Shown: positions 5,846 through 50,952, numbered from the stretch's first letter. The stretch: 64,000 nt of DNA from a virus (IMGVR_UViG_3300046725_000049:5088-69087), one strand, 5' to 3'. Numbers and translations: made by a program. Notes: generated by a model from the sequence alone, not told the origin.

Positions 5846-5853
5846 ACCGATAG
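5846..5853 (+). promoter_or_regulatory. Candidate sigma-28-type -10 element ACCGATAG
   Basis: Intergenic, 33 nt before the protease start, followed by the RBS GGGAGG; same motif precedes other structural genes. Confidence 0.5.
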
Positions 5854-5878
5854 AGGTCAGTGTTGAGGGAGGTCCAAG

Positions 5879-8694: not shown

Positions 8695-8702
8695 ACCGAT
8701 AG
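8695..8702 (+). promoter_or_regulatory. Candidate sigma-28-type -10 element ACCGATAG
   Basis: Directly after the terminator, ending 8 nt before ATG 8711 (leaderless-type spacing). Confidence 0.5.
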
Positions 8703-8710
8703 GAACAGCC

Positions 8711-9190: not shown

Positions 9191-9617
9191 CTCAGCGATG
9201 ACCACCATCCTCGTCGCGGCGCTGAGCCTGCTCGGCTCCGGCCTGGCCGCGTTGCTGTCCTACCGGGCCAGCACGGCGGCCAACAAGGTGTCGGAGAAAA
9301 AGGTCGACGCCGAGGCGTACGAACGCTCCCAGCAGTTCTACGAGAAGCTGCTCGGCGAGGCGGACAAGGCCCTGGACCGGCTGCGCGGCCAGGTCGAGCG
9401 GCTACAGGACCAGCTTGATCGGGTCAACGGCCAACTCGCCCAGGAACAGGACGTGTCCAATCTGCTGCGCAACCACGTCCGGTCGTTGCAGACCCAAGTC
9501 AACGGCATGGAGACGGCGGTCAGCGCGCTGCGCACCCAAATCACCAACACCGGGTCCGCCACGGGCACCCGTCGACCCCCTCCGCCGGCTGACGGGCTGC
9601 CGATAGAAAGTGTGTGA
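9183..9617 (+). CDS. Single-TM plus coiled-coil membrane protein (lysis accessory-like)
   Basis: N-terminal hydrophobic helix followed by heptads (ALDRLRGQVERLQDQLDRVNGQL); coupled to the 4-TM gene. Confidence 0.65.
   Translation: MSSSAMTTILVAALSLLGSGLAALLSYRASTAANKVSEKKVDAEAYERSQQFYEKLLGEADKALDRLRGQVERLQDQLDRVNGQLAQEQDVSNLLRNHVRSLQTQVNGMETAVSALRTQITNTGSATGTRRPPPPADGLPIESV
9599..9606 (+). promoter_or_regulatory. Candidate sigma-28-type -10 element GCCGATAG
   Basis: Ends 7 nt before GTG 9614; 7/8 match to the sigma-28 consensus GCCGATAA. Confidence 0.45.
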
Positions 9618-10105
9618 CGGGCGGCCCGGTTAGGCGTGTCGCGCCGCCGAGGGACCAGGCCCTGACCCGGGTCCGCCCCCCGGCGGCGCCCTCACGTCGC
9701 GTCACCCTCAGCCCCGCCGGGGCATATCTCATCGAACGAGCACCCGCGTTGCTTGCCGCCGCCGCGCCACTGGCCGCATCGCCCGCCGACCTGCAACCCG
9801 CCGATCTGGCCACCGGTCGCGGCCTGACCTACGAGTGGGAGCTGTTCCTGGCCGACGTGTTGCGCCGGCTGGCCCTCGTCGAGTCCGGCACAGGCGGCGG
9901 TGGTGGCGGACTCAGTTACGTGCACACCCAAAACGCTCCTGCCGCCACCTGGACCATCAGCCACAACCTGGGCACCGCACCTGCCCTCGAACTCGTGGCC
10001 GACGACGGGACCGAGCTGTACGCCGAGGTTCACCACCCCGATCTCAACACCGTCGTCATCATCTTCGGGCAGCCCTGGTCGGGCACCGCCTACCTGTACG
10101 GCTAG
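9614..10105 (+). CDS. Virion structural protein with C-terminal HNLG-type fibre domain
   Basis: YVHTQNAPAATWTISHNLG...VIIFGQPWSGTAYL; related to the C-terminus of the next gene. Confidence 0.65.
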   Translation: MTGGPVRRVAPPRDQALTRVRPPAAPSRRVTLSPAGAYLIERAPALLAAAAPLAASPADLQPADLATGRGLTYEWELFLADVLRRLALVESGTGGGGGGLSYVHTQNAPAATWTISHNLGTAPALELVADDGTELYAEVHHPDLNTVVIIFGQPWSGTAYLYG

Positions 10106-13056: not shown

Positions 13057-13064
13057 ACCGATAA
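13057..13064 (+). promoter_or_regulatory. Candidate sigma-28-type -10 element ACCGATAA
   Basis: In a 44-nt intergenic gap, followed by the RBS GAAAGG and ATG 13091. Confidence 0.5.
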
Positions 13065-13090
13065 GTCAAAGGGTGAAAGGTGGTGGCCCC

Positions 13091-16992: not shown

Positions 16993-17060
16993 CCACAGGG
17001 TTTCCCAACCTCTCCATCCGATTAGACACAACGACCCGTCCGAGGCAGGGGAGTGTCGTT

Positions 17061-34213: not shown

Positions 34214-34903
34214 GTGGACGCCCGGACGGAAGCAATGATTCGTGATCACATGGGTCTGGCGCAGTCACTGGCCCAGCAGGTGTGGCGCTCCGCTCCACAC
34301 GCCCTGGAGCTGGAGGAGCTGCGCGCGATTGCCCACCTCGGTCTGGTCGACGCCGCTGCCCGGTGGAGACCGTACTGCCACAAGAATCAATTCGACCCGG
34401 CCCGCATCGAATACTTCAAGCCCTACGTGGCCCGGCGGGTCTACGGCGAGCTGATGGACGAGATCCGCCGGCGGGACTACGCCTCCCGATCCCTGCGCAC
34501 CAAGGCCCGCGCCCTCCAGGAAGCCGGCCAGGACCGGGGCCTGTCCGAGGCGCAACTAGCCGAGCGCTCCGGGATGAGCATCAAGGAAGTCCGCGCCACC
34601 GTGCGCGGCATGGCGCAGCGTCCGGTCAGTCTGGAAGCCGAGGAGTTGGATCTGGACGCCCGCCAGGACGTGGAGTCCTGCGCCTTCACCTCCTCCGTGT
34701 TGGACAGCGTCGTGGTCGCCATCCGTGCCCTCGGTGAAGACCAGCAGGTCGTCATCGCCCTGCATTATTTCCGGGGCCTTCAGCTTCAGCAGATCGCCCG
34801 CGAGATGGGCATCACCGAATCCCACGCCTCCCAACTGCACGCGCATGCCGTGACGGCCGTGCATGCCGCGATGGTGTACGCCGCCCAAGCCAAGGATGAC
34901 TGA
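34214..34903 (+). CDS. RNA polymerase sigma factor, FliA/WhiG (sigma-28) family
   Basis: HLGLVDAA, RVYGELMDEIRRRDYASRSLRTKAR, VIALHYFRGLQLQQIAREMGITESHASQLH match sigma-28 regions 2-4. Confidence 0.9.
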   Translation: MDARTEAMIRDHMGLAQSLAQQVWRSAPHALELEELRAIAHLGLVDAAARWRPYCHKNQFDPARIEYFKPYVARRVYGELMDEIRRRDYASRSLRTKARALQEAGQDRGLSEAQLAERSGMSIKEVRATVRGMAQRPVSLEAEELDLDARQDVESCAFTSSVLDSVVVAIRALGEDQQVVIALHYFRGLQLQQIAREMGITESHASQLHAHAVTAVHAAMVYAAQAKDD

Positions 34904-35410
34904 ATGCTCAGCGACATCACCATCCGCAAGCTGGCCGCCGAGGGCCGGATCATCATCGACCCACCCCCGGCCGAGGAGGCGTATCAGCCCGCGTCGGTGG
35001 ACCTGCGACTGGGCCGTTCCTTCATCACCGAAGCCGGGCAAGAAGTCGAGATCCCGCGCACCGGCTTCAACGCCGTGCAACTCGGCCCGGGGGAGTGCCT
35101 GTTGGCCTGCACCCGCGAATGCGTCGGTGTGCCCGCTGACATCGTTGCCCGCGTCGAGGGAAAGTCGAGCTGGGGTCGTTGCTTCCTGATGATTCATTCC
35201 ACCGCCGGCTTCATCGACCCCGGCTTCCACGGACAGATCACCCTGGAGCTGAAAAACCTCAGCAAGAGCGTGATCGCGCTGCCGCTGGGCGCCTACATCG
35301 CCCAGATCTCCTTCCAGTACCTCGACCAGCCCGCCGGGCGCCCATACGGCAGTAAGGATCTGGGCTCCCGCTACCAAGGCCAGCGCGGTGCCACCCCGGC
35401 GAGGTTCTGA
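34904..35410 (+). CDS. dcd: dCTP deaminase
   Basis: QPASVDLRLG, VEGKSSWGR, HSTAGFIDPGFHGQITLEL. Confidence 0.95.
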   Translation: MLSDITIRKLAAEGRIIIDPPPAEEAYQPASVDLRLGRSFITEAGQEVEIPRTGFNAVQLGPGECLLACTRECVGVPADIVARVEGKSSWGRCFLMIHSTAGFIDPGFHGQITLELKNLSKSVIALPLGAYIAQISFQYLDQPAGRPYGSKDLGSRYQGQRGATPARF

Positions 35411-36102
35411 TGAACATCCTGCTGCAAGGCATCGTCGGATCCACCGCCTACGGCCTGGCCGGACCCGACTCCGACATCGACCGTCTCGGCCTGTACGCCG
35501 CGCCCACCGACGCCTTCCACGGGTTGCGCCTACCGATCGACAAGGCCGCCACCGTGTGCCGCAGCAAGCCCGACATCACCCTGCATGAGGCCCGCAAGTA
35601 CGCCCTGCTGGCGTTGGGCGCCAATCCCACCATCTCCGAACTGATGTGGTTGCCCGACGAGCTGTACGAGGTCCGCACCCCGTTGGGTGAGGAGCTGCTC
35701 GGCCTGCGTAGCGCGTTCCTGTCCGCCGGGAGGGTGCGGGACGCCTACTTCGGCTACGCCACCAGCCAGTTCCGTCGGCTGCTGAACACCGGGCAGTTCC
35801 AGTCCAAGATGCGCAAGCGTCAGTCCAAGCACGCTCGGCACCTGCTGCGACTACTCGACCAGGGATTGGAGCTATACGCCACCGGCCGGCTGACGATTCG
35901 GGTGCGCAACCCGCAGTGGTACCTCAAGCAGGGCGAGCACATCGCCGAGGATCCCGAACGCGCCCTCGCCGTGCTCGCCGACGCGCAGTCCCGCTTCGAG
36001 TCCCTTACTTCACCACTGCCTGAACGGCCCGACGAGGCCGCCGTCGAGCGTTGGCTGCGACGGGTCCGCGCCGCGCATCTGGAGGCCGACGATGCCGCTT
36101 AG
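35410..36102 (+). CDS. DNA polymerase beta-superfamily nucleotidyltransferase (RlaP/YcgL-like)
   Basis: GIVGSTAYGLAGPDSDID, ANPTISELMW, KHARHLLRLL. Confidence 0.85.
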   Translation: MNILLQGIVGSTAYGLAGPDSDIDRLGLYAAPTDAFHGLRLPIDKAATVCRSKPDITLHEARKYALLALGANPTISELMWLPDELYEVRTPLGEELLGLRSAFLSAGRVRDAYFGYATSQFRRLLNTGQFQSKMRKRQSKHARHLLRLLDQGLELYATGRLTIRVRNPQWYLKQGEHIAEDPERALAVLADAQSRFESLTSPLPERPDEAAVERWLRRVRAAHLEADDAA

Positions 36103-36445
36103 CCCCGAGGAGAAGGCCGCCGGCCGCGCCTTCCGCGACGAGATGCAGGTCGCCCTGCTGCGCAGCCACACCGCCGACCCACCCGACCATGTCGTGCCCA
36201 ACTTCATCGCCCTGTACCGGCACGCCTGCCCCCGACGCCAGGGCCGCTCCACCGCCCTGGAACTCAAGGAGCGCTACATCCCCTCCCCGCCCTACCCCGA
36301 CCACGGGGTACCCGCCGGCCGGTTCGCGTTCATCTACCGCGAAGGCGTCTGCCGGGGCTGCGGGCAGACCGCACGCAGCAAGGCCGGCCGATTAACTCTC
36401 GCGGAGGAGCGACCACCCCTCCATGGGCGTGTAGCGAGGAGTTAG
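36092..36445 (+). CDS. Hypothetical protein (Cys-containing)
   Basis: Coupled ORF, HAC...CRGCG. Confidence 0.65.
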   Translation: MPLSPEEKAAGRAFRDEMQVALLRSHTADPPDHVVPNFIALYRHACPRRQGRSTALELKERYIPSPPYPDHGVPAGRFAFIYREGVCRGCGQTARSKAGRLTLAEERPPLHGRVARS

Positions 36446-36447
36446 CG

Positions 36448-36636
36448 ATGACCGAGACCACGTACGGCCGCACCCGTCAAGCCGCCGACGACGGCCACGA
36501 GAGCACCTGGGGTGCCTCCGAGGAAATCAAGCGGGCCTGGGCGCAGGCCCACCCGGCTGCTCCGGTTGGCGAGCAGCTGCCCGCGCAGGCGCCGAGCCAG
36601 CCCGGCCCGACTTACAAGAACCCCAACGCCGCGTAA
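36448..36636 (+). CDS. Hypothetical protein, 62 aa
   Basis: RBS GAGGAG before ATG. Confidence 0.6.
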   Translation: MTETTYGRTRQAADDGHESTWGASEEIKRAWAQAHPAAPVGEQLPAQAPSQPGPTYKNPNAA

Positions 36637-36664
36637 CTGGCACGTCCGTTAGGGAGGCATTGAA

Positions 36665-37030
36665 GTGAAGGAATACCCAGGTGTCAGCCGGCTCCCGGTG
36701 CCCAACCTCCCTAGCGGACGTGTCCAGCGCAAGGTCCCCGCCCCGTTCACCCGGCCCAGCATCAGCATCGGCACCGCGATCCAGGAACGCCGGCAGTGGC
36801 GCACCGTCCCCGCGCACGCCATCACGCAGGGCGACACAATCCCGGGCCTGGGCACGGTCTGCGAGGTCGTCGAAGAGGTCAAGCAGTACCGCGCTGACCA
36901 GCTCGGTCGGGGGATCGGGATGAAGCCTCGGGTGCTCTGGACGGTGACCGTCGCTGCCGGGGATGGCAACGAGCGCGTCTACGCCGGTGAGGAACAGGTG
37001 TGGTGCTTCACCAAGCCTGACTGTGGATGA
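36665..37030 (+). CDS. Hypothetical protein
   Basis: RBS GGGAGG; beta-rich C-terminus. Confidence 0.6.
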   Translation: MKEYPGVSRLPVPNLPSGRVQRKVPAPFTRPSISIGTAIQERRQWRTVPAHAITQGDTIPGLGTVCEVVEEVKQYRADQLGRGIGMKPRVLWTVTVAAGDGNERVYAGEEQVWCFTKPDCG

Positions 37031-37245
37031 GTTGACCGACTTCGGATTCACCTGGGGACCGGCCGAGATCGAGCGCACCGCCGTCTTCGAGCGATGCTCA
37101 GGGAAGGTCTGGCGCGTGCTGCGGGTCTACGGTCGCCGGCTGTTCCTCCCAAGAGCTGGAGATCTACATCTCCCCGACGGGACGAAGCGTCCGGGTGTTC
37201 AAGCACGGCAAGGAAATGAAGGTGGTCATTGACCAGCGCGACTGA
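37023..37245 (+). pseudogene. Small phage gene with an apparent +1 frameshift near 37128
   Basis: MDELTDFGFTWGPAEIERTA...LRV continues best in the +1 frame as TVAGCSSQELEIYISPTGRSVRVFKHGKE. Confidence 0.4.
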
Positions 37246-38680
37246 GCACACGACCACGCTGCTCGCGGCGATCATCCCGGACCGGCGTGACCTGTTGGAC
37301 CGGGCGCTGCGGTACCTGACGCCCGAGCATTTCCCCGAACAGACGATGCGCAACATCTTCGTGATGCTGGAGCGCTACGGCGAGGTCACCGGCGCCATCA
37401 TGACCCGCGCCGCGCTGTCGGACATGCTCGCGGGCGCCCGCGCCGATGCCGGCAAGGTCGCCCTTTACGAGGAGACCTACGACCTGCTGTACGCCACGCA
37501 GGCCAACGAGGCGGACTTCCGCTGGGCACTGGAGCAGATCCGCGAGCTGGCCGCCGAGCGGGCAACTGGCGCCGCGCTGACCCAGGCCATGGAGATCCTC
37601 ACCCGGGGCGCCGAGGGCGAGCACGGCGAGAACCTACGCGGGCACGCCGACTCCCGGACCCATGCCCTGCAACGCTTCGCGCAGATCGACCGGGACCTGA
37701 CCATGCAGGAGTCCCCCGAGGGCGACATGCGCGCCGAAGGCGAGGACATCCTGGCCGACTACGCCCTGCGTAAACAGGCCGCCGCCGCCGGCCGGATGGT
37801 CGGCATCGAGTTCGGCATCCCCGAGCTGGACAACAAGATGAACGGCCTGAACAACGGCGAGCTGCACCTGCTGGTCGGTTTCACCGGGGAGGGCAAGACC
37901 AGCCTGGTCGTGCAGCTCGCCTGGAACGCCGCGATCAAGCAGGGCCGCAACGTTGTCATCCTCACCACCGAGACGCTGCGCACCCAGGTCCGGCGCCGGC
38001 TGGTCGCCCGACACTCGTGCCTGGAGCACTTCAACATCCCCAAGGGCCTCAACTCCCGCGACATCAAGATGGGCCTGCTCAACCCCGACCAGGAGCGTCA
38101 ACTCAGCGAGGTCGTCACCGACTTCACCCACAACCCTGGCTACGGGCACGTCTACATCGTGCAGGTCCCACGCGGCGCTACCATGGGCTACTGCGAATCG
38201 AAGCTGACCCGCATCCAGCGGATGTTCAACATCGACCTGGCGATCATGGACTACTTCGCGCTGCTCAAGCCGGAGCGGCGCCGCCCGGATGACCGCCAGG
38301 AGCTGGGTTCCATCCTCAAAGACGGCAAGCAGCTCGCGGTCACCTTCAACGACGGCGCCGGGTTCCCGTTCGTCACCCCGTGGCAGGTGTCGCGCTCGGC
38401 CCGGCAGGAAGCCGAACGGACCGGCTACTACACCGCCTCCGCGTTGTCGGAGACCGCCGAGGCGTCCAACTCCGCCGACGGGATCATCTCCCTGCTCGCC
38501 CCGCTGGACAACGACCAGCGCTACGCCAAGGTCAAGATGCAGGTGATGAAGAACCGCGACGGGGAGAAGGCCAACGCCATCGAAGTCCAGGTCGACTACG
38601 CCACTGGATGGTTCAGCGCCGTGGGACGCCCCCAGAGCATGGACGAGTTGTTCACCGGCGATCCGCTGGCTGGTCTGTAG
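37229..38680 (+). CDS. dnaB: Replicative helicase, DnaB-like
   Basis: LLVGFTGEGKT Walker A, LAIMDYF Walker B, WQVSR, MKNRDG. Confidence 0.9.
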   Translation: MTSATEHTTTLLAAIIPDRRDLLDRALRYLTPEHFPEQTMRNIFVMLERYGEVTGAIMTRAALSDMLAGARADAGKVALYEETYDLLYATQANEADFRWALEQIRELAAERATGAALTQAMEILTRGAEGEHGENLRGHADSRTHALQRFAQIDRDLTMQESPEGDMRAEGEDILADYALRKQAAAAGRMVGIEFGIPELDNKMNGLNNGELHLLVGFTGEGKTSLVVQLAWNAAIKQGRNVVILTTETLRTQVRRRLVARHSCLEHFNIPKGLNSRDIKMGLLNPDQERQLSEVVTDFTHNPGYGHVYIVQVPRGATMGYCESKLTRIQRMFNIDLAIMDYFALLKPERRRPDDRQELGSILKDGKQLAVTFNDGAGFPFVTPWQVSRSARQEAERTGYYTASALSETAEASNSADGIISLLAPLDNDQRYAKVKMQVMKNRDGEKANAIEVQVDYATGWFSAVGRPQSMDELFTGDPLAGL

Positions 38681-38688
38681 AGTTTGGG

Positions 38689-39111
38689 TCATTCCGTGTT
38701 CTTGCGCTTGAGCCGGCCACGCTCCACCCAGGTCTCCGGATGCTCCATGGAGTGTTCGATTTGCTCCAGCAGTTGTGGGTTGGAGTACAGCCGTTGTTCT
38801 CGATCCGGCAGATGGTTGAGATCGAAGGCGGCCAGGATGGCGGCGGTCAAACCTGGCTCGTCGGTGGGCATGAGGTAGCCGATGCGACGCCCGATCGCTG
38901 ACTTTTCCACGGTGGTGATGTTGTCCAGGCTCACGGCGCAGGCGCCATCCAGGCCGTTGGGGATGCCGACCGGCAATTCCGAGGTCAAGCCCTTGACGCT
39001 GCTAGTGATGGGCGCGACGCTGACCCAGGTGAGGTAGGGGAGCACGATCTCCCGGGTCAAGATCAGTGCAGGTCGGGTCTTGTCGAGCCGAACCAGATGG
39101 ATTGGGCGCAT
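38689..39111 (-). CDS. mazF: MazF/PemK endoribonuclease toxin with ~40-aa C-terminal extension
   Basis: MRPIHLVRLDKTRPALILTRE...VAPITS...VSLDNITT...IGYL...AAFDL closely resembles M. tuberculosis MazF3 as recalled. Confidence 0.9.
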   Translation of the reverse strand: MRPIHLVRLDKTRPALILTREIVLPYLTWVSVAPITSSVKGLTSELPVGIPNGLDGACAVSLDNITTVEKSAIGRRIGYLMPTDEPGLTAAILAAFDLNHLPDREQRLYSNPQLLEQIEHSMEHPETWVERGRLKRKNTE

Positions 39112-39351
39112 TTAGTCGCTCAATCCCAGCGGGCGGCCAGTCGCCCAGGTGGCGAGCCCGTTGAGGTCGTCTGGTTCGGTGGCGGCGGCTTTGAGGATCT
39201 CGACATCATGCAGTGCAGCGCGACGGCGTTGTTCCCGGCGCAGCGCGTCGCTGATTACCTCAGTGCGGCTGTTCGCGTGACCAGCGGACACCTCTTGGTC
39301 GAGGAAGTGGGCCAACTCATCCGGCAGCCGTACCGCTATCTGAACTGTCAT
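39112..39351 (-). CDS. mazE: Ribbon-helix-helix antitoxin (MazE3-like)
   Basis: QIAVRLPDE...SRTEVISDALRRE; adjacent upstream of mazF. Confidence 0.85.
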   Translation of the reverse strand: MTVQIAVRLPDELAHFLDQEVSAGHANSRTEVISDALRREQRRRAALHDVEILKAAATEPDDLNGLATWATGRPLGLSD

Positions 39352-39357
39352 GCAATC

Positions 39358-39375
39358 AGTATACCACTTCGGTAT
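39358..39375 (-). promoter_or_regulatory. mazEF leaderless promoter and operator
   Basis: -10 TATACT on the minus strand, 6 nt before ATG; overlapping palindrome ATACC-N5-GGTAT. Confidence 0.6.
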
Positions 39376-39432
39376 GCAAGTTCGGTCATGAACGGCGGTG
39401 CGCTCACACCGCGCCAGCCGCCACGTCGGCGG

Positions 39433-39672
39433 TCACCCAGTCAAGGCGGCTGGCCTGCCCTTCGGCGGCCTCGGCCAAGCCCCGGAACAGGAGGCGCGTA
39501 AGTCGGCGTTCTCGATCAGTTCCCGTTCGGGGGTGAGGACGGCTGGGACGAACACGATGGTTCCGTCGGGCTCCTCGTGGGCCAGGTAGCGGCGGTGTTC
39601 GGCGCGGCCGATCTTGCCGAGAGACGCCCGGCGGCGTTCGTCGAGTTCGATCAGGATGTCAGTGTTGCTCAT
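39433..39672 (-). CDS. AbrB/swapped-hairpin-like small protein
   Basis: IELDERRRASLGK...YLAHEEPDGTIVFVPAV pattern. Confidence 0.55.
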   Translation of the reverse strand: MSNTDILIELDERRRASLGKIGRAEHRRYLAHEEPDGTIVFVPAVLTPERELIENADLRASCSGAWPRPPKGRPAALTG

Positions 39673-39709
39673 CTCAGCTCACCTGTAGTTCCTTTGGGCT
39701 GCCCCCCAG

Positions 39710-40267
39710 CTATCGGGCCAAGAGCGCGCGGGGGTCGAGCTGGAAGGCAAACGGTGTGTCGGTGGACAGGATGTCTCCGATCCCGGCTGCGGCGTGCTCG
39801 ACGTAATGTGAGCCGTCGAGGCGGTTGAGCCGCAGCGTGAGCGAACGTGGCGCGTCCTGCTCGACGAGGAGATACCAGTTGATGCCGGCGGCGGCGTAGA
39901 GCTGCATCTTCAGTACATGATCCGTGGCGGCGTTACCCGGTGAAACGATCTCACCAATGAGGGGCACGTGTGTCGCGTCGGTCCTGACCCCCTCATCTGC
40001 CGTGTCCACGATGACCAGGTCCGGGATGACGATTTGGCCCGTGTGCAGGCGGACGTTGATCGCCTCATAGACGAACAAGCTCGCCGCCGACGCGCCTGAG
40101 TCCAGCAGGTTGGCAAGCCGGCGGGATAGCCGCTGGTGGCTCATGCTCGGGGCGGGGCTCACCAGTAGGCTCCCATCGATCAGCTCGATTCGGTCCAGGG
40201 TCTCGCCCAGTGCCAGGTATTCCTCTTCGCTCCACGGTCCGATGTGCTTCAGCACGGCCACGTTCAT
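39710..40267 (-). CDS. Uma2 (DUF820) family PD-(D/E)XK-like nuclease
   Basis: [13 protein letters not shown]...HQ, IPDLVI, EIVSPG...D...K..LYAAAGI..YLLVE; start ATG 40267. Confidence 0.9.
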
Positions 40268-40423
40268 CGCGAACTCCACTTCCTTTCGGTTGGTTCCCTC
40301 ACGGTGACGGCGCACGGATGCATCGGGTACAGACTAGCGCGGCTTTCGCCGGTAAAGCCGTAGCGTCTGACCCACGACCAACCATCCGCTTCATACGCGA
40401 ACCGGTCCAACGGTAGAAATAGC

Positions 40424-40630
40424 ATGGACACCTACACTGACCTGGTCATGCAGCGTCTGGGCGCCGAGCCACTGCTGACCCCGGCCGAGGTCGCGCTGAT
40501 CTTCCACGTCGACCCTAAGACCGTCACCCGCTGGGCCAAGGCCGGCAAGCTGAACTGCATCCGGACCCTGGGCGGCCACCGGCGTTTTCGGGTCTCGGAG
40601 GTGAAGGCCCTGTTCAACGGCGACAGCTAG
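40424..40630 (+). CDS. bldC: BldC-family MerR-like HTH regulator
   Basis: AEPLLTPAEVALIFHVDPKTVTRWAKAGKLNCIRTLGGHRRFRVSEVKAL, about 41/51 identical to Streptomyces BldC as recalled. Confidence 0.9.
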   Translation: MDTYTDLVMQRLGAEPLLTPAEVALIFHVDPKTVTRWAKAGKLNCIRTLGGHRRFRVSEVKALFNGDS

Positions 40631-41203
40631 ATGCTGCGCAGGCGTACGCGCTCGGAGATCGGGGTGGCCAACGAGAAGGTCTCGATCGTCCTGGCGTGCA
40701 ACTTGATCGGGATGGACATCCCCGAAGACGTTGGATCACGCCGGTCGGTCAAGGTCCACTGCCCGTTCGGCGAGATCTACCACGTCGACCAGGGCTACGA
40801 GGCCGCGTTCCGGATCTACCCCGACTCCAACAGCGCGTTCTGCTTCGCCGGCTGCGGCTACTTCACGCCGGTGTCCCTGTGCGCCCACGCCTGGGGCACC
40901 CCGTCCGCCACCGTCGCCGTGGAGCTGCTGGAGCGGGTCGGGGTCAAGCCGGTCAGCCTGGCTGACGCTTGGGCGCAGGTGGCCAGCCACGAGCCGGCGC
41001 CGGATGCGGTCCTACTCGCCCAGGCGCTCAAGACCTTCTGCCGGCGAACCTGCCTGAACTGGGAGCAGATCCAGTTCGAACCCGCCGTCGCGGCCACCCT
41101 CACCCGGTGTCTGGCCCTGCTGGACCTGGTTGGGACCGAGGCCGACGCCGGTACCTGGCTGGCGGCCTGCAAGCGGGTGATGAGCATCGCCGTCAACCGG
41201 TAG
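40631..41203 (+). CDS. Stand-alone primase-type CHC2 zinc-finger protein
   Basis: VHCPFGEIYH...FRIYPDSNSAFCFAGCG; no Toprim domain in the ORF. Confidence 0.75.
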   Translation: MLRRRTRSEIGVANEKVSIVLACNLIGMDIPEDVGSRRSVKVHCPFGEIYHVDQGYEAAFRIYPDSNSAFCFAGCGYFTPVSLCAHAWGTPSATVAVELLERVGVKPVSLADAWAQVASHEPAPDAVLLAQALKTFCRRTCLNWEQIQFEPAVAATLTRCLALLDLVGTEADAGTWLAACKRVMSIAVNR

Positions 41204-41239
41204 ACGGTTGGCAACTGCCCACCTACCGTGTACCGTTAG

Positions 41240-41731
41240 ATGTCTCTGATCCCGACAAGTGAGGAGTATGAATTGCCCGAAGAGAAGGACTTCAGATGGC
41301 TGGCCGAGGAGGGCTGGCTGTCGGTCATCGAGATCAGTGAGCTGTTCGGTGTCTCCAGGTCACGCGCCAACGCCATGATTGTCGATGATGGCGAGTTCGA
41401 TCCGGAGGATGTCCGTCGGTCCAAGGGCGGCAAGCTCATGGTGTTCGTGCGAGCCAGCGCCGCGATGGACAAGAAGGCGTCCTTCGACCGGCTGGCGACC
41501 ATGTGGGACCAGATGGACACCGATGAGCGCGCTCAATACCGCAAGGATGTTCGCGCCTGGGTCGAGAGCCGGCTCGGCGACGTCATTTTGACTGGTGAGC
41601 TGCCACGGCGGCTGCTGGTGGCCTACATGAAGGCCCAGGAACAACGAAAGGCCCCTCGGGTGCGTAAGGTCACGCCGCCGGCCAAGAAGGCGGCTTCCCG
41701 ATCCCGCCGGGGCAGCAGCGCGCAAAATTGA
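41240..41731 (+). CDS. HTH protein with C-terminal Lsr2-like DNA-binding domain
   Basis: LSVIEISELFGVSRSRAN HTH; YRKDVRAWVESRLGDVILTGELPRRLLVAY. Confidence 0.6.
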   Translation: MSLIPTSEEYELPEEKDFRWLAEEGWLSVIEISELFGVSRSRANAMIVDDGEFDPEDVRRSKGGKLMVFVRASAAMDKKASFDRLATMWDQMDTDERAQYRKDVRAWVESRLGDVILTGELPRRLLVAYMKAQEQRKAPRVRKVTPPAKKAASRSRRGSSAQN

Positions 41732-41800
41732 CCCCCTGTCCCCGTAGGTACAGGTAGGGACCAGAACACCTGGGACCGGTACACGAGGGGAAAGCACAAG

Positions 41801-42028
41801 GTGGCCAAGAACTTCACGCTCGGCGACAGGGTCCAGTACACCGATGGGCAGGGCTTCACCAAGCTCGCGTTCATCACCGGCACGCGCAAGTCCATCGCCA
41901 AGGGCACCGAGGTCGCCCGCCCGGAGAAGGACCAGGCGCACCTGCTGGTGATCTCGCCGACGGGCAAGCAGTACCCGCGCGAGAGCATTCCGTTCGGCGA
42001 GGGGCCGCGCACCTTCACCACGGTCTAG
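41801..42028 (+). CDS. Small SH3/KOW-like hypothetical protein
   Basis: FTLGDRVQYTDGQG...; purine-rich RBS region. Confidence 0.65.
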   Translation: MAKNFTLGDRVQYTDGQGFTKLAFITGTRKSIAKGTEVARPEKDQAHLLVISPTGKQYPRESIPFGEGPRTFTTV

Positions 42029-42076
42029 GTGGCGCGCATGAAAGACCTCCCAGGACACGGGGAGTAGGGGAAAGCT

Positions 42077-42113
42077 GGTGGCTCGGTACCGCTACGGGGG
42101 GTACCGAGCCACC
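42077..42113 (+). terminator. Hairpin/terminator
   Basis: GGTGGCTCGGTACC / GGTACCGAGCCACC perfect 14-bp inverted repeat. Confidence 0.7.
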
Positions 42114-42139
42114 GGCGTGAGCGGGGGGATGCGGCGGCC

Positions 42140-42538
42140 GTGCTGGGGTGTACCGGTACCGGGAAGATCACCGAGTACGAGTTCATCTGGGCGTTGGGTG
42201 GTCGAGAAGACTCATGGGACTGCCGTGGTCCACTACTGCGGTTGTCCTTCTCCTCCTACCGACTGATGACGTTGGAACAGGCGATCAATTCCCAACGAGC
42301 CACCGACGTTCTTTGGGACGGTTTGGCCTTGGCGTCCTCCGATAGGGTGACATTCGCGTTATGCGGCGCCCATTGGATGGACCTGAGTTACCTGGCCGGT
42401 TTGCACGGTCGGCTGCAAGGTCGGCGTGATTGGTCCGCCGAGGGAAGCGCGCTGCTCAAGGACATCTGCACCAGCGCCGGGTGGGACGTGAAGGAGATCG
42501 CCAACATGATCGTGTGGCGCAACCTGCAATGCAAATGA
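42140..42538 (+). CDS. Hypothetical protein
   Basis: 132-aa ORF in the operon direction. Confidence 0.5.
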   Translation: MLGCTGTGKITEYEFIWALGGREDSWDCRGPLLRLSFSSYRLMTLEQAINSQRATDVLWDGLALASSDRVTFALCGAHWMDLSYLAGLHGRLQGRRDWSAEGSALLKDICTSAGWDVKEIANMIVWRNLQCK

Positions 42539-42639
42539 CGTGTCGGTAGTTGACTGGACTCGCTGCGTGCACGTACCCTCGGGCCACGCGAGGAGGGGGA
42601 CCTCCCGTCATAGCGGCCCTAGCAGGCGGAGGTTGGTAG

Positions 42640-43167
42640 TTGTCACGCGGGTCTGATACACGACCGACCCGAGAACGAATGGATCTGGATGCCGCAGGCC
42701 GCGATGCGCTTGACAGCGCCTTATGGTCAGCCCTCGCGTCCTTCACGCCTCTGCTGGGAGGCGGACTGTGTATCTTTCCCACCCCATTCAATCTCGCGGC
42801 ATCGGTCGTACTGGCCCGCAACACCTTCGACTTCGAGATCGCCGAGGCGATGTTCGATGTTCAGGTCGGGCAGCACATCCGCCGATTTCTCATCGCACTG
42901 CATCACATGGCGTCCGGCGGACAACTGCCGTGCTTCCTGTATGTCACGCCACACTCGGACATCAACCTCCTGGCGGCCAAGTGCCGGGAGGAATTTTCGC
43001 GTGCCCCAGCGGGTCCGGGATTCAACTTCCGAGTAACGGTGAATGAGATCGCCCAGCCAGACTTCATCCGGGAGATCCTTGACACCACCGTTACCCATCC
43101 CGCGACGGCGGCGGGGCTCATAGATGATTTGGTAGACGCAGTACTGTACGAAGGAGAAGAAGAATGA
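42640..43167 (+). CDS. Hypothetical protein
   Basis: 175-aa ORF whose stop overlaps the lsr2 start; true start uncertain. Confidence 0.5.
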   Translation: MSRGSDTRPTRERMDLDAAGRDALDSALWSALASFTPLLGGGLCIFPTPFNLAASVVLARNTFDFEIAEAMFDVQVGQHIRRFLIALHHMASGGQLPCFLYVTPHSDINLLAAKCREEFSRAPAGPGFNFRVTVNEIAQPDFIREILDTTVTHPATAAGLIDDLVDAVLYEGEEE

Positions 43168-43646
43168 GACGTGAATTGGTCGTACTCGAAGACGATCTCG
43201 ATGGCGGCAGGGCCGACGAGACGGTGAGGTACGCGCTCGATGGCGTCAATTACGAGATCGACCTTTCGGAGAAGAACGCGTCGAAGCTACGCACGGCACT
43301 CCAGGACTACCTCGCGGCCAGTCGCCGACTCGGAAGGGTCGGGATAGCGCCCCGGCGGACCCACAGCGTCAACCCCAGCGCCGCGCACCGCGCCATCGCA
43401 CAGTCCAATCGGGACCAGAACAGAGCGGTGCGGGAATGGGCGCTCAAGATGGGGTACGAGGTCGCCGACCGGGGCCGGGTACCCGAGCGGTACACCGAGG
43501 AGTACCAGAAATGCGGCGGCCTGGTGACGAAGGAACCCACCCCACCGCCGAAGGACACCCCGCCGACCAAGACAGTCCCCGCCCAGGTGACTGGGGCGGC
43601 CAACGGCGCCAAGAAGACCACCGGTAAGTCCAGGGCCAAACGGTAA
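43164..43646 (+). CDS. lsr2: Lsr2 nucleoid-associated protein
   Basis: LEDDLDGG.ADETVRYALDGVNYEIDLS..NASKLR; VREWA...GYEVADRGRVP. Confidence 0.95.
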   Translation: MRRELVVLEDDLDGGRADETVRYALDGVNYEIDLSEKNASKLRTALQDYLAASRRLGRVGIAPRRTHSVNPSAAHRAIAQSNRDQNRAVREWALKMGYEVADRGRVPERYTEEYQKCGGLVTKEPTPPPKDTPPTKTVPAQVTGAANGAKKTTGKSRAKR

Positions 43647-45110: not shown

Positions 45111-45229
45111 GCACCGAGCAGCAGGCGCAGGAGCTGCACGACCAGCGTCGCCAGGACGATCCTGACCACGATCCGTGCGGCTGCTGGGACTGCGATTTCG
45201 ACTTCGCCGATGTTACCGGTGAGTCATAA
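45107..45229 (+). CDS. 40-aa acidic peptide with CGCWDC
   Basis: GTGA overlap with the upstream stop; below the track cutoff. Confidence 0.45.
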   Translation: MSTEQQAQELHDQRRQDDPDHDPCGCWDCDFDFADVTGES

Positions 45230-45502
45230 GTGAAGGAAGTTCTTCGATACGGCAGCGCGTCGCGTCACGGCCTGACTACGATGGGTGACGTGAGTGGGGG
45301 AGGCGCGATGAAGCGGGTCCAGCGGCGCGGCGTCGAGGCGCGCTGCGACGGCGGCCGGGACTGCCGCTGCTGCGAATGCTGGCACCAGTGCCCAGGCTGT
45401 CAGGAGTTCGGTGCCCGGGGTCGCTGTTTAGGCGGCCACGCCTACGCACCCAACTCGCACATGTGCGTTGAACTTCACCACTGGATCACATCTGTGGAAT
45501 GA
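45230..45502 (+). CDS. Cys-rich hypothetical protein
   Basis: CRCCECWHQCPGCQE...C...HMC. Confidence 0.5.
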   Translation: MKEVLRYGSASRHGLTTMGDVSGGGAMKRVQRRGVEARCDGGRDCRCCECWHQCPGCQEFGARGRCLGGHAYAPNSHMCVELHHWITSVE

Positions 45503-45634
45503 CCTGACACACGTTGTGGTAGGTCATTCTCAAATAGTCAAGCCCAGGCCGAACAAAGGCCGCGAACTTATCCAGAACGTTGGACGGTCCGTGACTCCTC
45601 GTCGTAGGCTTCTCGGTACCACCAGTAAGGCCGG

Positions 45635-45925
45635 ATGTGGATGTCAGCAGGACGCTGTGCCGGGTGCGGCCAAACCGATTCATGCAAGAAAGTCGAACTG
45701 CATGTCCTCGGTTGTCCGGAGTACCTGCGGCTCTACCGGGAAGACCCGGAGCGCTGCCTCGATCCGGCTGCCGAGTACCGGCGGTACAAGGCGCAAGACG
45801 ACACCTCTGAGGCACGGGCAGCGCGCCGCGACCTGCGGTTGCAGCGCCGCTTCGCCGACCTGGAAGCGCAGCACTCCGCGCAGGCCAGTAGGTGGGTACG
45901 GCCCAAGGACATCTTGGAGGACTGA
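45635..45925 (+). CDS. Zinc-finger-like hypothetical protein
   Basis: CAGCG...HVLGC. Confidence 0.65.
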   Translation: MWMSAGRCAGCGQTDSCKKVELHVLGCPEYLRLYREDPERCLDPAAEYRRYKAQDDTSEARAARRDLRLQRRFADLEAQHSAQASRWVRPKDILED

Positions 45926-45988
45926 GGTGGAGCGGGGGCTCACGTGGGCACGGGTTGACGGTTCCGGCTAACCACCCTGATGACAGGG

Positions 45989-46030
45989 GGCCGGGCCGTC
46001 ACGGGAGTCTGCGACGGGGGCGGCCCGGCC
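45989..46030 (+). terminator. GC-rich hairpin
   Basis: GGCCGGGCCG / CGGCCCGGCC inverted repeat with partially paired interior. Confidence 0.5.
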
Positions 46031-46092
46031 TCACTTATAAACGCGCAAGGTAGTAGGCAATAAGCGTTCCCGGAAGACAGCCAGGAGCATAA

Positions 46093-46785
46093 GTGAAGAT
46101 CGCCGACAAGGGAGTGGACTTCGTGTCCGCCCCCAAGGACATCGCGTCTCTATTTGAGATCTACTACCCCTACATCGTGTACACGGTGCGCCGCGCGGGA
46201 ATTGCCGAGAACTGCGCCGAGGACGTGGCCAGTGAGATTTTGTTGCGCCTTTACGAACGCAACTTCCTGGAGGAGTTCGACCCCACTCTGACCTTCAGGT
46301 ACCAGGGCGAGGACCGGCCGGCTCGCTTCAAGAGCTTCCTGACCCGATCGGTGCTCAAGTACGTACGCGGGCACTACGACAAACAGAAGCGCTACCGCAC
46401 CCGGGAACTGCTGCTGTGCGACCTGCTACTCAACGAGGAAGACCGCCAGGACGCCCGCTGGGTGGAGGTCTTCGGCGGCTCGGTGGAGTTCGAAGACGAC
46501 GTGCTCAACGCCCTCGCGGCCGACGAATGGGCCGCCGACCTGCGCAAATACTTGGAGCAGGTGCCACGCCGTTCCAAGGTGGACCAGTGCGACCTGCCCC
46601 GACTGTGGGACAAGGTCGTCGACCAGATCCGCCGTACCGGCGAGATCAACGTGCACGAGCTGTGCGCCGCGTTCAACATCTCCATCGGCGCCATGTACAC
46701 CTGGCTGCACCGGATGCGCTGCCACCTGGCCGCCGCCCTGGACCTACCCGCCCCGCAGCGCCGCCCCCGGAGGCTCAACAAGTGA
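46093..46785 (+). CDS. Divergent sigma-70/ECF-like factor
   Basis: LFEIYYPYI...AEDVASEILLRL...FDP...FKSFL (region 2) and C-terminal HTH VHELCAAFNISIGAMYTWLHR. Confidence 0.7.
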   Translation: MKIADKGVDFVSAPKDIASLFEIYYPYIVYTVRRAGIAENCAEDVASEILLRLYERNFLEEFDPTLTFRYQGEDRPARFKSFLTRSVLKYVRGHYDKQKRYRTRELLLCDLLLNEEDRQDARWVEVFGGSVEFEDDVLNALAADEWAADLRKYLEQVPRRSKVDQCDLPRLWDKVVDQIRRTGEINVHELCAAFNISIGAMYTWLHRMRCHLAAALDLPAPQRRPRRLNK

Positions 46786-50400: not shown

Positions 50401-50952
50401 ATGAACGTGGTTCAGAAAGCCTGGATGGCCGGCGTCATCGAGACGCGGGGCAAGGTCCGGTTCACCAACAACCCGGACCGCAAGACCAACCAGCTCGTGT
50501 TGCAGGTCCGCACCGGCCACACCGCCGTGGCCACGCGGCTGTGTGAGTTGACCGGTATCCGGGTGGACATCAAGGAGAACAAGTCGATCCGCGTCGCGGA
50601 CCGCCGGCCGTGCGCCGAGCACTGCCAGGAGGCGCACAGCCACGTCATCGCCGAGATCCCCGAGCACGCCGTGTGGGCCATCTCCGGCGCCGGGGCGGCG
50701 ATCGTGCTGGACAACCTGGTGCCGTTCTTCGTCACCACCGACGGGCTCCAGGTGGTCGCGGACAACATCCTCGCCAGATTGCCCCAGGCCGGACGCGGAC
50801 GCTCGGCCGTGGATCAGACCATCCTGCGACTCAAGCGCCTGGGCTGGCGCATCCCCGACGCGGCGATGGAGCACTTCGTGGGCACCCCGATCGTGCGCCG
50901 CTCCGACGGGCGGTTCGCCAAGGTTGCGGAGATCATCAGTGTCCCAGCCTGA
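50401..50952 (+). CDS. Degenerate LAGLIDADG-fold protein with Cys/His insert
   Basis: AWMAGVIETRG aligns to LAGLIDADG with the catalytic acidic position as Arg; CAEHCQEAHSH insert. Confidence 0.55.
   Translation: MNVVQKAWMAGVIETRGKVRFTNNPDRKTNQLVLQVRTGHTAVATRLCELTGIRVDIKENKSIRVADRRPCAEHCQEAHSHVIAEIPEHAVWAISGAGAAIVLDNLVPFFVTTDGLQVVADNILARLPQAGRGRSAVDQTILRLKRLGWRIPDAAMEHFVGTPIVRRSDGRFAKVAEIISVPA

Follow-up and report, generated by a model that had tools for sequence, protein, structure and literature searches.

Phage-encoded proteins of the sigma-70 family, such as gp28 and gp33/34 of Bacillus phage SPO1 and gp55 of T4, direct the host core polymerase away to middle or late promoters that carry a -10 consensus of their own. 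Homologues of sporulation sigma factors in Bacillus phages, described by Schwartz et al. in 2022, reportedly cluster within the host sporulation clade and alter dormancy. In Streptomyces, BldC binds AATTNNNNC direct repeats cooperatively and delays development, and the Corynebacterium prophage CGP3 encodes CgpS, an Lsr2-type protein. Genes related to these kinds of regulator lie together, between positions 34,214 and 43,646, in a 64,000-nt stretch of viral DNA (hereafter, the window) comprising bases 5088-69087 of one virus contig of 69,087 bp in total (IMGVR_UViG_3300046725_000049, labelled G000). A reading made from the sequence alone (the sequence-only reading) had taken this trio, a WhiG/FliA-like sigma, BldC and Lsr2, for a host developmental kit with which the phage could steer the hypha-to-spore decision. 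The analysis presented here makes it reasonably probable, taken as a whole, that the region serves as the regulatory arm in a lineage of uncultured actinobacterial phages that carry an integrase and combine a late-gene sigma, a sigma cascade, a host-directed BldC and a routine Lsr2.

The resemblance to the SPO1 and T4 sigma cascades lies in the presence of two sigma-like genes in one phage together with a -10 box of its own, an arrangement proposed for the present phage from genes and motifs. The difference is that this phage belongs to an actinobacterial siphovirus lineage, that its putative late sigma falls closest to FliA and WhiG, the sigma-28 branch, and that its box is of the sigma-28 type. 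As in the Bacillus phages, the sigma resembles a host developmental sigma, but it belongs to a phage-only family and the boxes lie on virion genes. With FliA, sigma-28 and Streptomyces WhiG (TIGR02479; 6PMI, 6PFV) the locus shares a group-3 sigma architecture, a putatively cognate -10 element CCGATA(A/G) and the logic of a strong -10 combined with a weak -35 element. In contrast to these proteins, the phage sigma scores about half the family cut-off, carries a nine-residue insert with an invariant Trp and Cys, occurs on viral or metagenome contigs only, has virion genes as its predicted targets and is accompanied by no -35 box.

Results

A phage-only sigma family nearest to FliA and WhiG

The only cultured relative is Microbacterium phage Magritte (133 kb), whose capsid protein shows 63% identity, and megablast of the region against cultured phages returned no match. 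Statements on gene co-occurrence are based on five viral contigs and Magritte, the related viral contigs being labelled G001 (IMGVR_UViG_3300018465_000004) to G005. G001 (137.6 kb) and G002 (124.7 kb), with CheckV completeness of 100 and 93%, are syntenic with G000 from terminase through the replication genes. The CheckV completeness of G000 is 45% and its ends show no terminal overlap, so absences from it are valid only for the DNA in hand. The contig has 66% G+C and carries nearly all of its genes on the plus strand, with virion genes (portal, head protease, capsid and tail) up to about 29 kb followed by an early/replication arm; an integrase is present in the lineage.

Profile searches bear out that the three regulators are real genes. 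The sigma protein aligns over its full length with the group-3 architecture (regions 2, 3, and 4); Pfam Sigma70_r4 reaches 39.8 bits (cut-off 24.1), and regions 2 and 3 are visible below their cut-offs. Its best NCBIfam match, FliA_WhiG (TIGR02479), spans profile positions 2-223 of 224 and scores 98.2 bits, where the cut-off is 189.6; the score on the WhiG equivalog (NF004935) is 83.2 bits, where 343 would be needed. A PDB sequence search gave 53.8 bits for WhiG (6PFV) and 51.1 bits for FliA (6PMI), which places the protein about equally distant from WhiG and from E. coli FliA. The description as a WhiG/FliA-like sigma is therefore sound as to the nearest family, whereas an assignment as WhiG orthologue is ruled out by scores far under the FliA/WhiG family cut-offs.

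The sigma has 182 homologues on metagenome contigs, the best 120 sharing 58-69% identity, and eight loci in IMG/VR, and the family had no match in 185,579 species represented by one genome each. Judged from sequence, the protein is a member of a large phage-only family. Its N-terminus agrees with that of the homologues, and the Magritte counterpart (gene 47; 26% identity), annotated as "DNA binding protein", occupies the same slot after the helicase. The segment DW-x-x-RS-x-R and the helix ESRxSQLH are both present in the phage protein. When the FliA residues that contact the -10 element were mapped onto it by hand, via the alignment, R58, R74, R84, R94, and R98 corresponded to invariant or basic positions in the phage family. 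The family also carries a nine-residue insert with respect to E. coli FliA (residues 51-59; positions 34364-34390), located between regions 2.2 and 2.3 and containing the invariant Trp and Cys in the arrangement W-x-P-Y-C.

Conserved CCGATA boxes before virion genes

The sigma-28 consensus is C-13 G-12 ATAA, and the contacts of sigma-28 are strong at -10 and weak at -35 (bioRxiv 10.1101/2020.01.02.893370). Actinobacterial WhiG recognizes a GCCGA -10 element, host WhiG promoters needing in addition a TCA/TAA box at -35 (PMC13595943). In the phage, boxes with the consensus CCGAT(A/T)(A/G)(G/A), in agreement with both the sigma-28 and the WhiG -10 elements, precede virion genes (Table 1). The box of the head protease/scaffold gene has equivalents before the orthologous genes of G001 (ACCGATAAA) and G002 (TCCGATTAA), at distances of 32, 34, and 34 nt in G000, G001, and G002, and that of gene 13091 has orthologues at 34 nt in G001 (GCCGATTAG) and at 33 nt in G002 (CCCGATAAG). 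Before gene 17061, the positional counterpart of the major tail protein gene of Magritte, CCGATTAGACAC is common to the three genomes at distances of 43, 48, and 48 nt. The box is also found ahead of the portal gene and directly after the capsid gene, and in G002 TCCGATAGG lies 15 nt ahead of the gene that follows the capsid gene. Across the three genomes, the position of the box before orthologous genes is thus constant, whereas the flanks diverge.

The motif [AG]CCGATA[AG] occurs seven times on the plus strand of G000 and never on the minus strand, with six of the seven occurrences at gene boundaries of the virion module. CCGATA is among the most enriched upstream hexamers in all three genomes (upstream-region counts of 5, 7, and 7 against 0.54, 0.90, and 1.37 expected). 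The boxes of Magritte read CCGATAT; CCGATATCC is present five times in forward and never in reverse orientation, once at 14 nt before the scaffold ATG and once at 32 nt before gene 23. A GCCGATAA-type -10 element is hence found at the boxes of G000, G001, G002, and Magritte, all of which also carry the sigma, and this co-occurrence suggests that the phage sigma recognizes them. Neither TAAA nor the actinobacterial T(C/A)A appears 15-16 bp upstream across 26 sites.

Following the sigma-28 numbering of +1, transcription would start 14 nt past the first C of the box. A start codon is located 14-15 nt away at 9 of the 26 sites, and most of the remaining boxes precede, by 32-51 nt, a gene that has a Shine-Dalgarno sequence; this spacing predicts transcripts that are either leaderless or led by a Shine-Dalgarno sequence. 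The box at 9599 probably drives a leaderless mRNA for the gene at 9614-10105, for which the frame of the GTG start was checked by hand against the stop-to-stop open reading frame (9593-10105). This gene lies inside the virion module and its C-terminal part is HNH-like.

A sequence-level BldC in the replication module

Like the BldC of Streptomyces coelicolor and S. venezuelae (SCO4091; 6AMA, 6AMK; NF033787), the 68-aa phage protein is a single MerR-type winged helix (HTH_17/MerR at residues 17-65) with no coiled coil or effector domain, and 42 of 55 aligned residues (76%) are identical to the Streptomyces protein (6AMA). It scores 98.4 bits on NF033787 (cut-off 77), as compared to 91.5 and 84.8 bits for the above-cut-off copies that G001 and G002 carry in the same slot, directly after DnaB. 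Identity to the chromosomal BldCs that were checked is 71-83%; these include proteins labelled as Nocardioidaceae, Kineosporiaceae, Propionibacteriales, and Jatrophihabitans, and some lie on contigs of hundreds of kb. The residues listed by Schumacher et al. (PMC5859096) for DNA contact are all kept (Lys26, Thr27, Thr29, Arg30, Trp31, Lys33, His46, Arg47, and Arg48), as are those of the head-to-tail interface, including its hydrophobic part (Phe21, Val23, and Trp31; Leu11, Ile40, Thr42, Leu43, and Gly44; the Arg22-Glu16 pair), except for a change of Arg22 to His. Apart from this substitution, the protein differs from Streptomyces BldC in being encoded by a phage, right after the DnaB helicase in the relatives. 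The best MerR-like proteins of cultured phages show 42-53% identity to it, score 56-63 bits, which is below the cut-off, and are devoid of Lys26. Gp36 of mycobacteriophage D29 (PMC12266134), which has a small MerR-like/BldC-like fold, attaches to direct repeats and modulates the expression of phage genes, resembles BldC by fold only and prefers GC-rich repeats, in contrast with the sequence-level BldC described here.

The presence of BldC is restricted among the relatives. BldC is absent from G003, G004, and Magritte, which have the sigma and Lsr2, and neither BldC nor Lsr2 was seen in G005 (66% complete). Microbacterium belongs to the Micrococcineae. Since bldC has been reported as lost from the Micrococcineae (PMC4255298) and Magritte has no BldC, a phage of a bldC-less host is itself without the gene. 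Searches for arrays of BldC sites, which covered NATTN4C in tandem, clusters of the TGTCC type in G000, and 5-mers of any sequence spaced in phase at 8-12 bp, revealed nothing above chance; tandem or phased BldC-type repeats numbered 0 against 1.4 expected in G000, and the near-complete G001 and G002 held a few scattered pairs (3 and 5, respectively). A repeat search around BldC and Lsr2 returned nothing like an operator array, and no element is common to the sequences that precede the three BldC genes. An above-cut-off BldC (104 bits; 67% identity to the G000 protein) is also encoded at 2558-2764 of MT836007.1, an unverified 13.9-kb contig from a human faecal sample deposited as "Bacteriophage sp.", and distant homologues of the sigma occur on three other faecal-sample contigs. 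The literature searched contained no description of a phage that carries a member of the BldC family.

Lsr2, a second sigma and conserved gene order

Both domains of the Lsr2-type protein score above the gathering score (PF11774, 81.6 bits; PF23359, 44.3 bits) and its RGR hook is intact, with DRGRVP aligned to the RGR of M. tuberculosis Lsr2 (4E1P, 6QKQ, 2KNG). Lsr2 and MerR-type domains are among the commonest actinophage regulators (PMC8612146), and the 438 phage records that match Lsr2 agree with the earlier statement that it is known from actinophages; its presence here is routine. The protein has in common with other phage and prophage Lsr2 proteins both domains, the hook and an integrase-carrying phage as its bearer; it differs in an extra tail and in the composition of the phage DNA, which is not AT-rich. 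The C-terminal tail comprises 44 residues (positions 43512-43646), is rich in Pro, Thr, and Lys and resembles the basic tails of histone-like proteins. No WhiB gene was found in the G000 contig.

A second sigma at 46093 had also been proposed, and it is accepted here as a divergent, putatively extracytoplasmic function (ECF)-like sigma. Its profile matches are weak (Pfam region 2, 16.8 bits; TIGR02937, 26.2 bits against a cut-off of 42.9). An AlphaFold model built from four homologues, with a predicted local distance difference test (pLDDT) score of 68, retrieved almost only ECF sigmas in a Foldseek search of the PDB (best E 2.5e-4, range to 1e-2), at probabilities of 0.99-1.0 but template modelling (TM) scores of only 0.25-0.39. 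Profile comparison of the two sigma families revealed no similarity. The gene is kept in G001, G002, and G003, and its Magritte homologue is gene 60. Upstream of it, about 1 kb (45111-46092) shows little coding signal and contains a 15-nt inverted repeat (45497-45529; GAATGACCTGACACA / TGTGGTAGGTCATTC); this stretch could be an operator or origin region.

G001 and G002 share with G000 the gene order sigma, DnaB, BldC, Lsr2, ECF-like sigma, which makes the arrangement a module rather than a grouping that arose by chance.

Table 1. Boxes and genes discussed in the text, with positions counted from the first base of the window
Feature	Position	Strand	Remarks
-10 box ACCGATAGA	5846..5854	+	32 nt before head protease/scaffold gene
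-10 box ACCGATAGG	8695..8703	+	Just past capsid-gene hairpin; 15 nt before ATG 8711 (leaderless geometry)
-10 box GCCGATAGA	9599..9607	+	14 nt before in-frame GTG at 9614
-10 box ACCGATAAG	13057..13065	+	33 nt before gene 13091
-10 box TCCGATTAG	17017..17025	+	43 nt before gene 17061
Group-3 sigma, phage-specific family closest to FliA/WhiG (sigma-28), proposed to serve late genes	34214..34903	+	229 aa
DnaB-like helicase	37229..38680	+	Pfam DnaB_C, 84.7 bits; in relatives BldC comes directly after
Cassette of four genes, including a MazF/PemK-like toxin gene (38689-39111)	38689..40267	-	PemK_toxin, 35.4 bits; PHROG MazF-like
BldC-family single winged-helix protein	40424..40630	+	68 aa; NF033787 HTH_BldC
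Lsr2-type nucleoid-associated protein	43164..43646	+	160 aa; PF11774 and PF23359
Divergent ECF-like sigma-family protein	46093..46785	+	Weak Pfam, NCBIfam and PHROG sigma matches
Protein called degenerate LAGLIDADG	50401..50952	+	183 aa; no Pfam or PHROG match

Neighboring genes and other sequence features

In G000, DnaB and BldC are separated by the minus-strand cassette, whose four genes have no counterpart in G001 and G002 and which, for that reason, has the look of a recently acquired insert, perhaps a moron with a toxin-antitoxin or defence role. The sigma is directly followed (34904-36102) by genes for a dCTP deaminase/dUTPase-like protein and for a nucleotidyltransferase of the RlaP type, which may have nucleotide-pool or DNA-modification functions. 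The 1,652-aa gene of the virion module was taken as the tape measure. The protein at 50401 had been called a degenerate LAGLIDADG protein, a reading that we could not confirm: it has no Pfam or PHROG match at E<=1, and only the N-terminal MAGVIETRG resembles the motif. Its G001 homologue lies elsewhere, adjoining the second sigma.

With relatives of 125-137 kb and 69 kb in G000, an accessory arm of about 85 kb is possibly absent from the phage, or the contig is truncated. In G001, intergenic DNA at about 65-77 kb, within the accessory arm that G000 lacks, contains many palindromes of the type CGCTAGGC-N-GCCTAGCG that look like a repeated operator. A scan for consensus sigma-70 promoters and terminators gave nothing informative, and GGTAG(A/T), a candidate early-promoter motif spotted by eye, was dropped upon finding no enrichment (8 against 6.3 expected).

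Discussion

A proposed late sigma and an apparently borrowed BldC

The scores below the FliA/WhiG cut-offs, the phage-only family and the placement of the boxes before orthologous virion genes indicate that the sigma is most likely a phage late-gene sigma for virion genes. The occurrence of both the boxes and the sigma in a phage of the non-sporulating genus Microbacterium also points away from a whiH/whiI switch. In the proposed model, the sigma-28-like protein would be made from the replication/early arm and send host core RNA polymerase to virion-gene promoters, which would consist of the -10 box without a conserved -35 element; transcription would begin on the start codon, in the leaderless case, or some 20-35 nt ahead of a gene led by a Shine-Dalgarno sequence. 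The ECF-like sigma would probably provide a further step in the phage sigma cascade. For Lsr2, the family suggests the role known from other actinophages, in which it may silence or counter-silence DNA that is richer in AT.

What stands out in the system is BldC, the only component that looks borrowed to tamper with host development. It appears to have been captured from a host-type gene, keeping the residues for DNA reading and for head-to-tail filaments. BldC sustains vegetative growth (PMC6428758), and the phage protein would most likely bind BldC-type sites on the host chromosome, prolonging vegetative growth, the state in which the phage replicates. Host-directed and phage-internal roles for this protein nevertheless stand at about even odds, the former being weakly favored by the chromosome-like sequence, the kept residues, the distribution among relatives and the lack of site arrays in the phage genomes. 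The proposal of a host developmental kit is thus compatible with BldC, through its kept residues, and does not hold for a sigma that is probably a phage-only late factor or for an ordinary Lsr2.

Several observations weigh against this combination of a late sigma and a host-directed BldC. CCGATA is not enriched over the whole window (12 occurrences against 14.5 expected), only its placement being non-random, and the search for a -35 element upstream of the 26 boxes yielded no informative column between -45 and -6, even though region 4 of the sigma is well conserved. The positions of R34, R95, Q63, Q73, and T69, which contact the -10 element in FliA, differ in the phage sigma. In BldC, the residue replaced by His, Arg22, is part of the salt bridge of the dimer, and the slot of the gene is fixed within the replication module (DnaB, BldC, next gene), which would suit a phage-internal architectural role as well. 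Finally, G000 is perhaps about half a genome, so absences are weak evidence for the present phage.

Alternative explanations

An entirely phage-internal system, in which BldC would act on phage DNA in an architectural or transcriptional capacity, comparable to D29 gp36 or Xis, Lsr2 would be a prophage silencer like CgpS and the sigmas the drivers of the phage program, with nothing aimed at host development, is in our view unlikely but by no means negligible. The BldC slot after DnaB is fixed in three phages, MerR-like proteins of a single domain occur widely in actinophages, also in those whose hosts do not sporulate, and D29 gp36 does regulate phage genes. Against this, G000 has no tandem or phased BldC repeats and G001 and G002 have only scattered pairs, the phage BldC is much closer to chromosomal BldC (76-83%) than are the MerR-like proteins of cultured phages (42-53% identity to the phage BldC; 56-63 bits), and Lys26, Arg30, and His46, the readers of the host-type site, are kept. 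The opposite extreme, in which the host is the target of all three proteins, the sigma firing WhiG/FliA-dependent genes such as whiH, whiI or zoospore genes while BldC and Lsr2 reset development so that the hypha-to-spore decision is steered, appears improbable. It could draw on the chemically plausible cross-recognition of host WhiG promoters, whose -10 core the phage boxes share, on the status of BldC as a true family member and on the limits that Streptomyces development sets on phage spread (PMC10117723). Yet the sigma reaches 83 bits on the WhiG equivalog, which has a cut-off of 343, and its distances from WhiG and E. coli FliA are about equal; its family and boxes are also present in a phage of non-sporulating Microbacterium and in relatives without BldC. 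Furthermore, the boxes lie before virion genes and lack the -35 TCA/TAA that host WhiG promoters need.

This missing -35 element bears equally on the idea that the boxes are read by the WhiG/FliA sigma of the host itself, tying virion production to host differentiation or motility and leaving some other job to the phage sigma. The identity of the box with a host-type -10 element would allow such recognition, but a phage in which a sigma-28-like factor is conserved alongside the boxes needs no host sigma, and we regard this explanation as highly improbable. A more speculative and rather unlikely proposal is that the lineage imported both halves of a host circuit that meet at whiI, a BldC reading host sites and a sigma with WhiG -10 specificity, and uses them as an infection timer. 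If so, BldC would hold the host, and perhaps sigma-28-type promoters, in a "vegetative" state until the sigma fires the virion genes, the phage sigma might spill onto WhiG-dependent promoters of the host, and phage and host development would share one promoter code.

Implications for actinophage biology

The present reading corrects an appealing but over-extended story, in that the "WhiG" of this phage is most likely not a developmental gene. The timing of late transcription in actinobacteriophages is poorly described in the literature searched, where no report of a sigma-28-type late system in actinophages was found and where a 2021 survey of actinophage transcription factors does not contain the word "sigma" (PMC8612146). 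The boxes described here would supply a concrete promoter code for actinophage late transcription, one that the cultured relative Magritte carries too. The sequence-level BldC, in turn, would be a third host regulator borrowed by actinophages, after WhiB and Lsr2. Given that BldC delays development and that Streptomyces development restricts phage spread (PMC10117723), a phage-encoded BldC is a plausible countermeasure.

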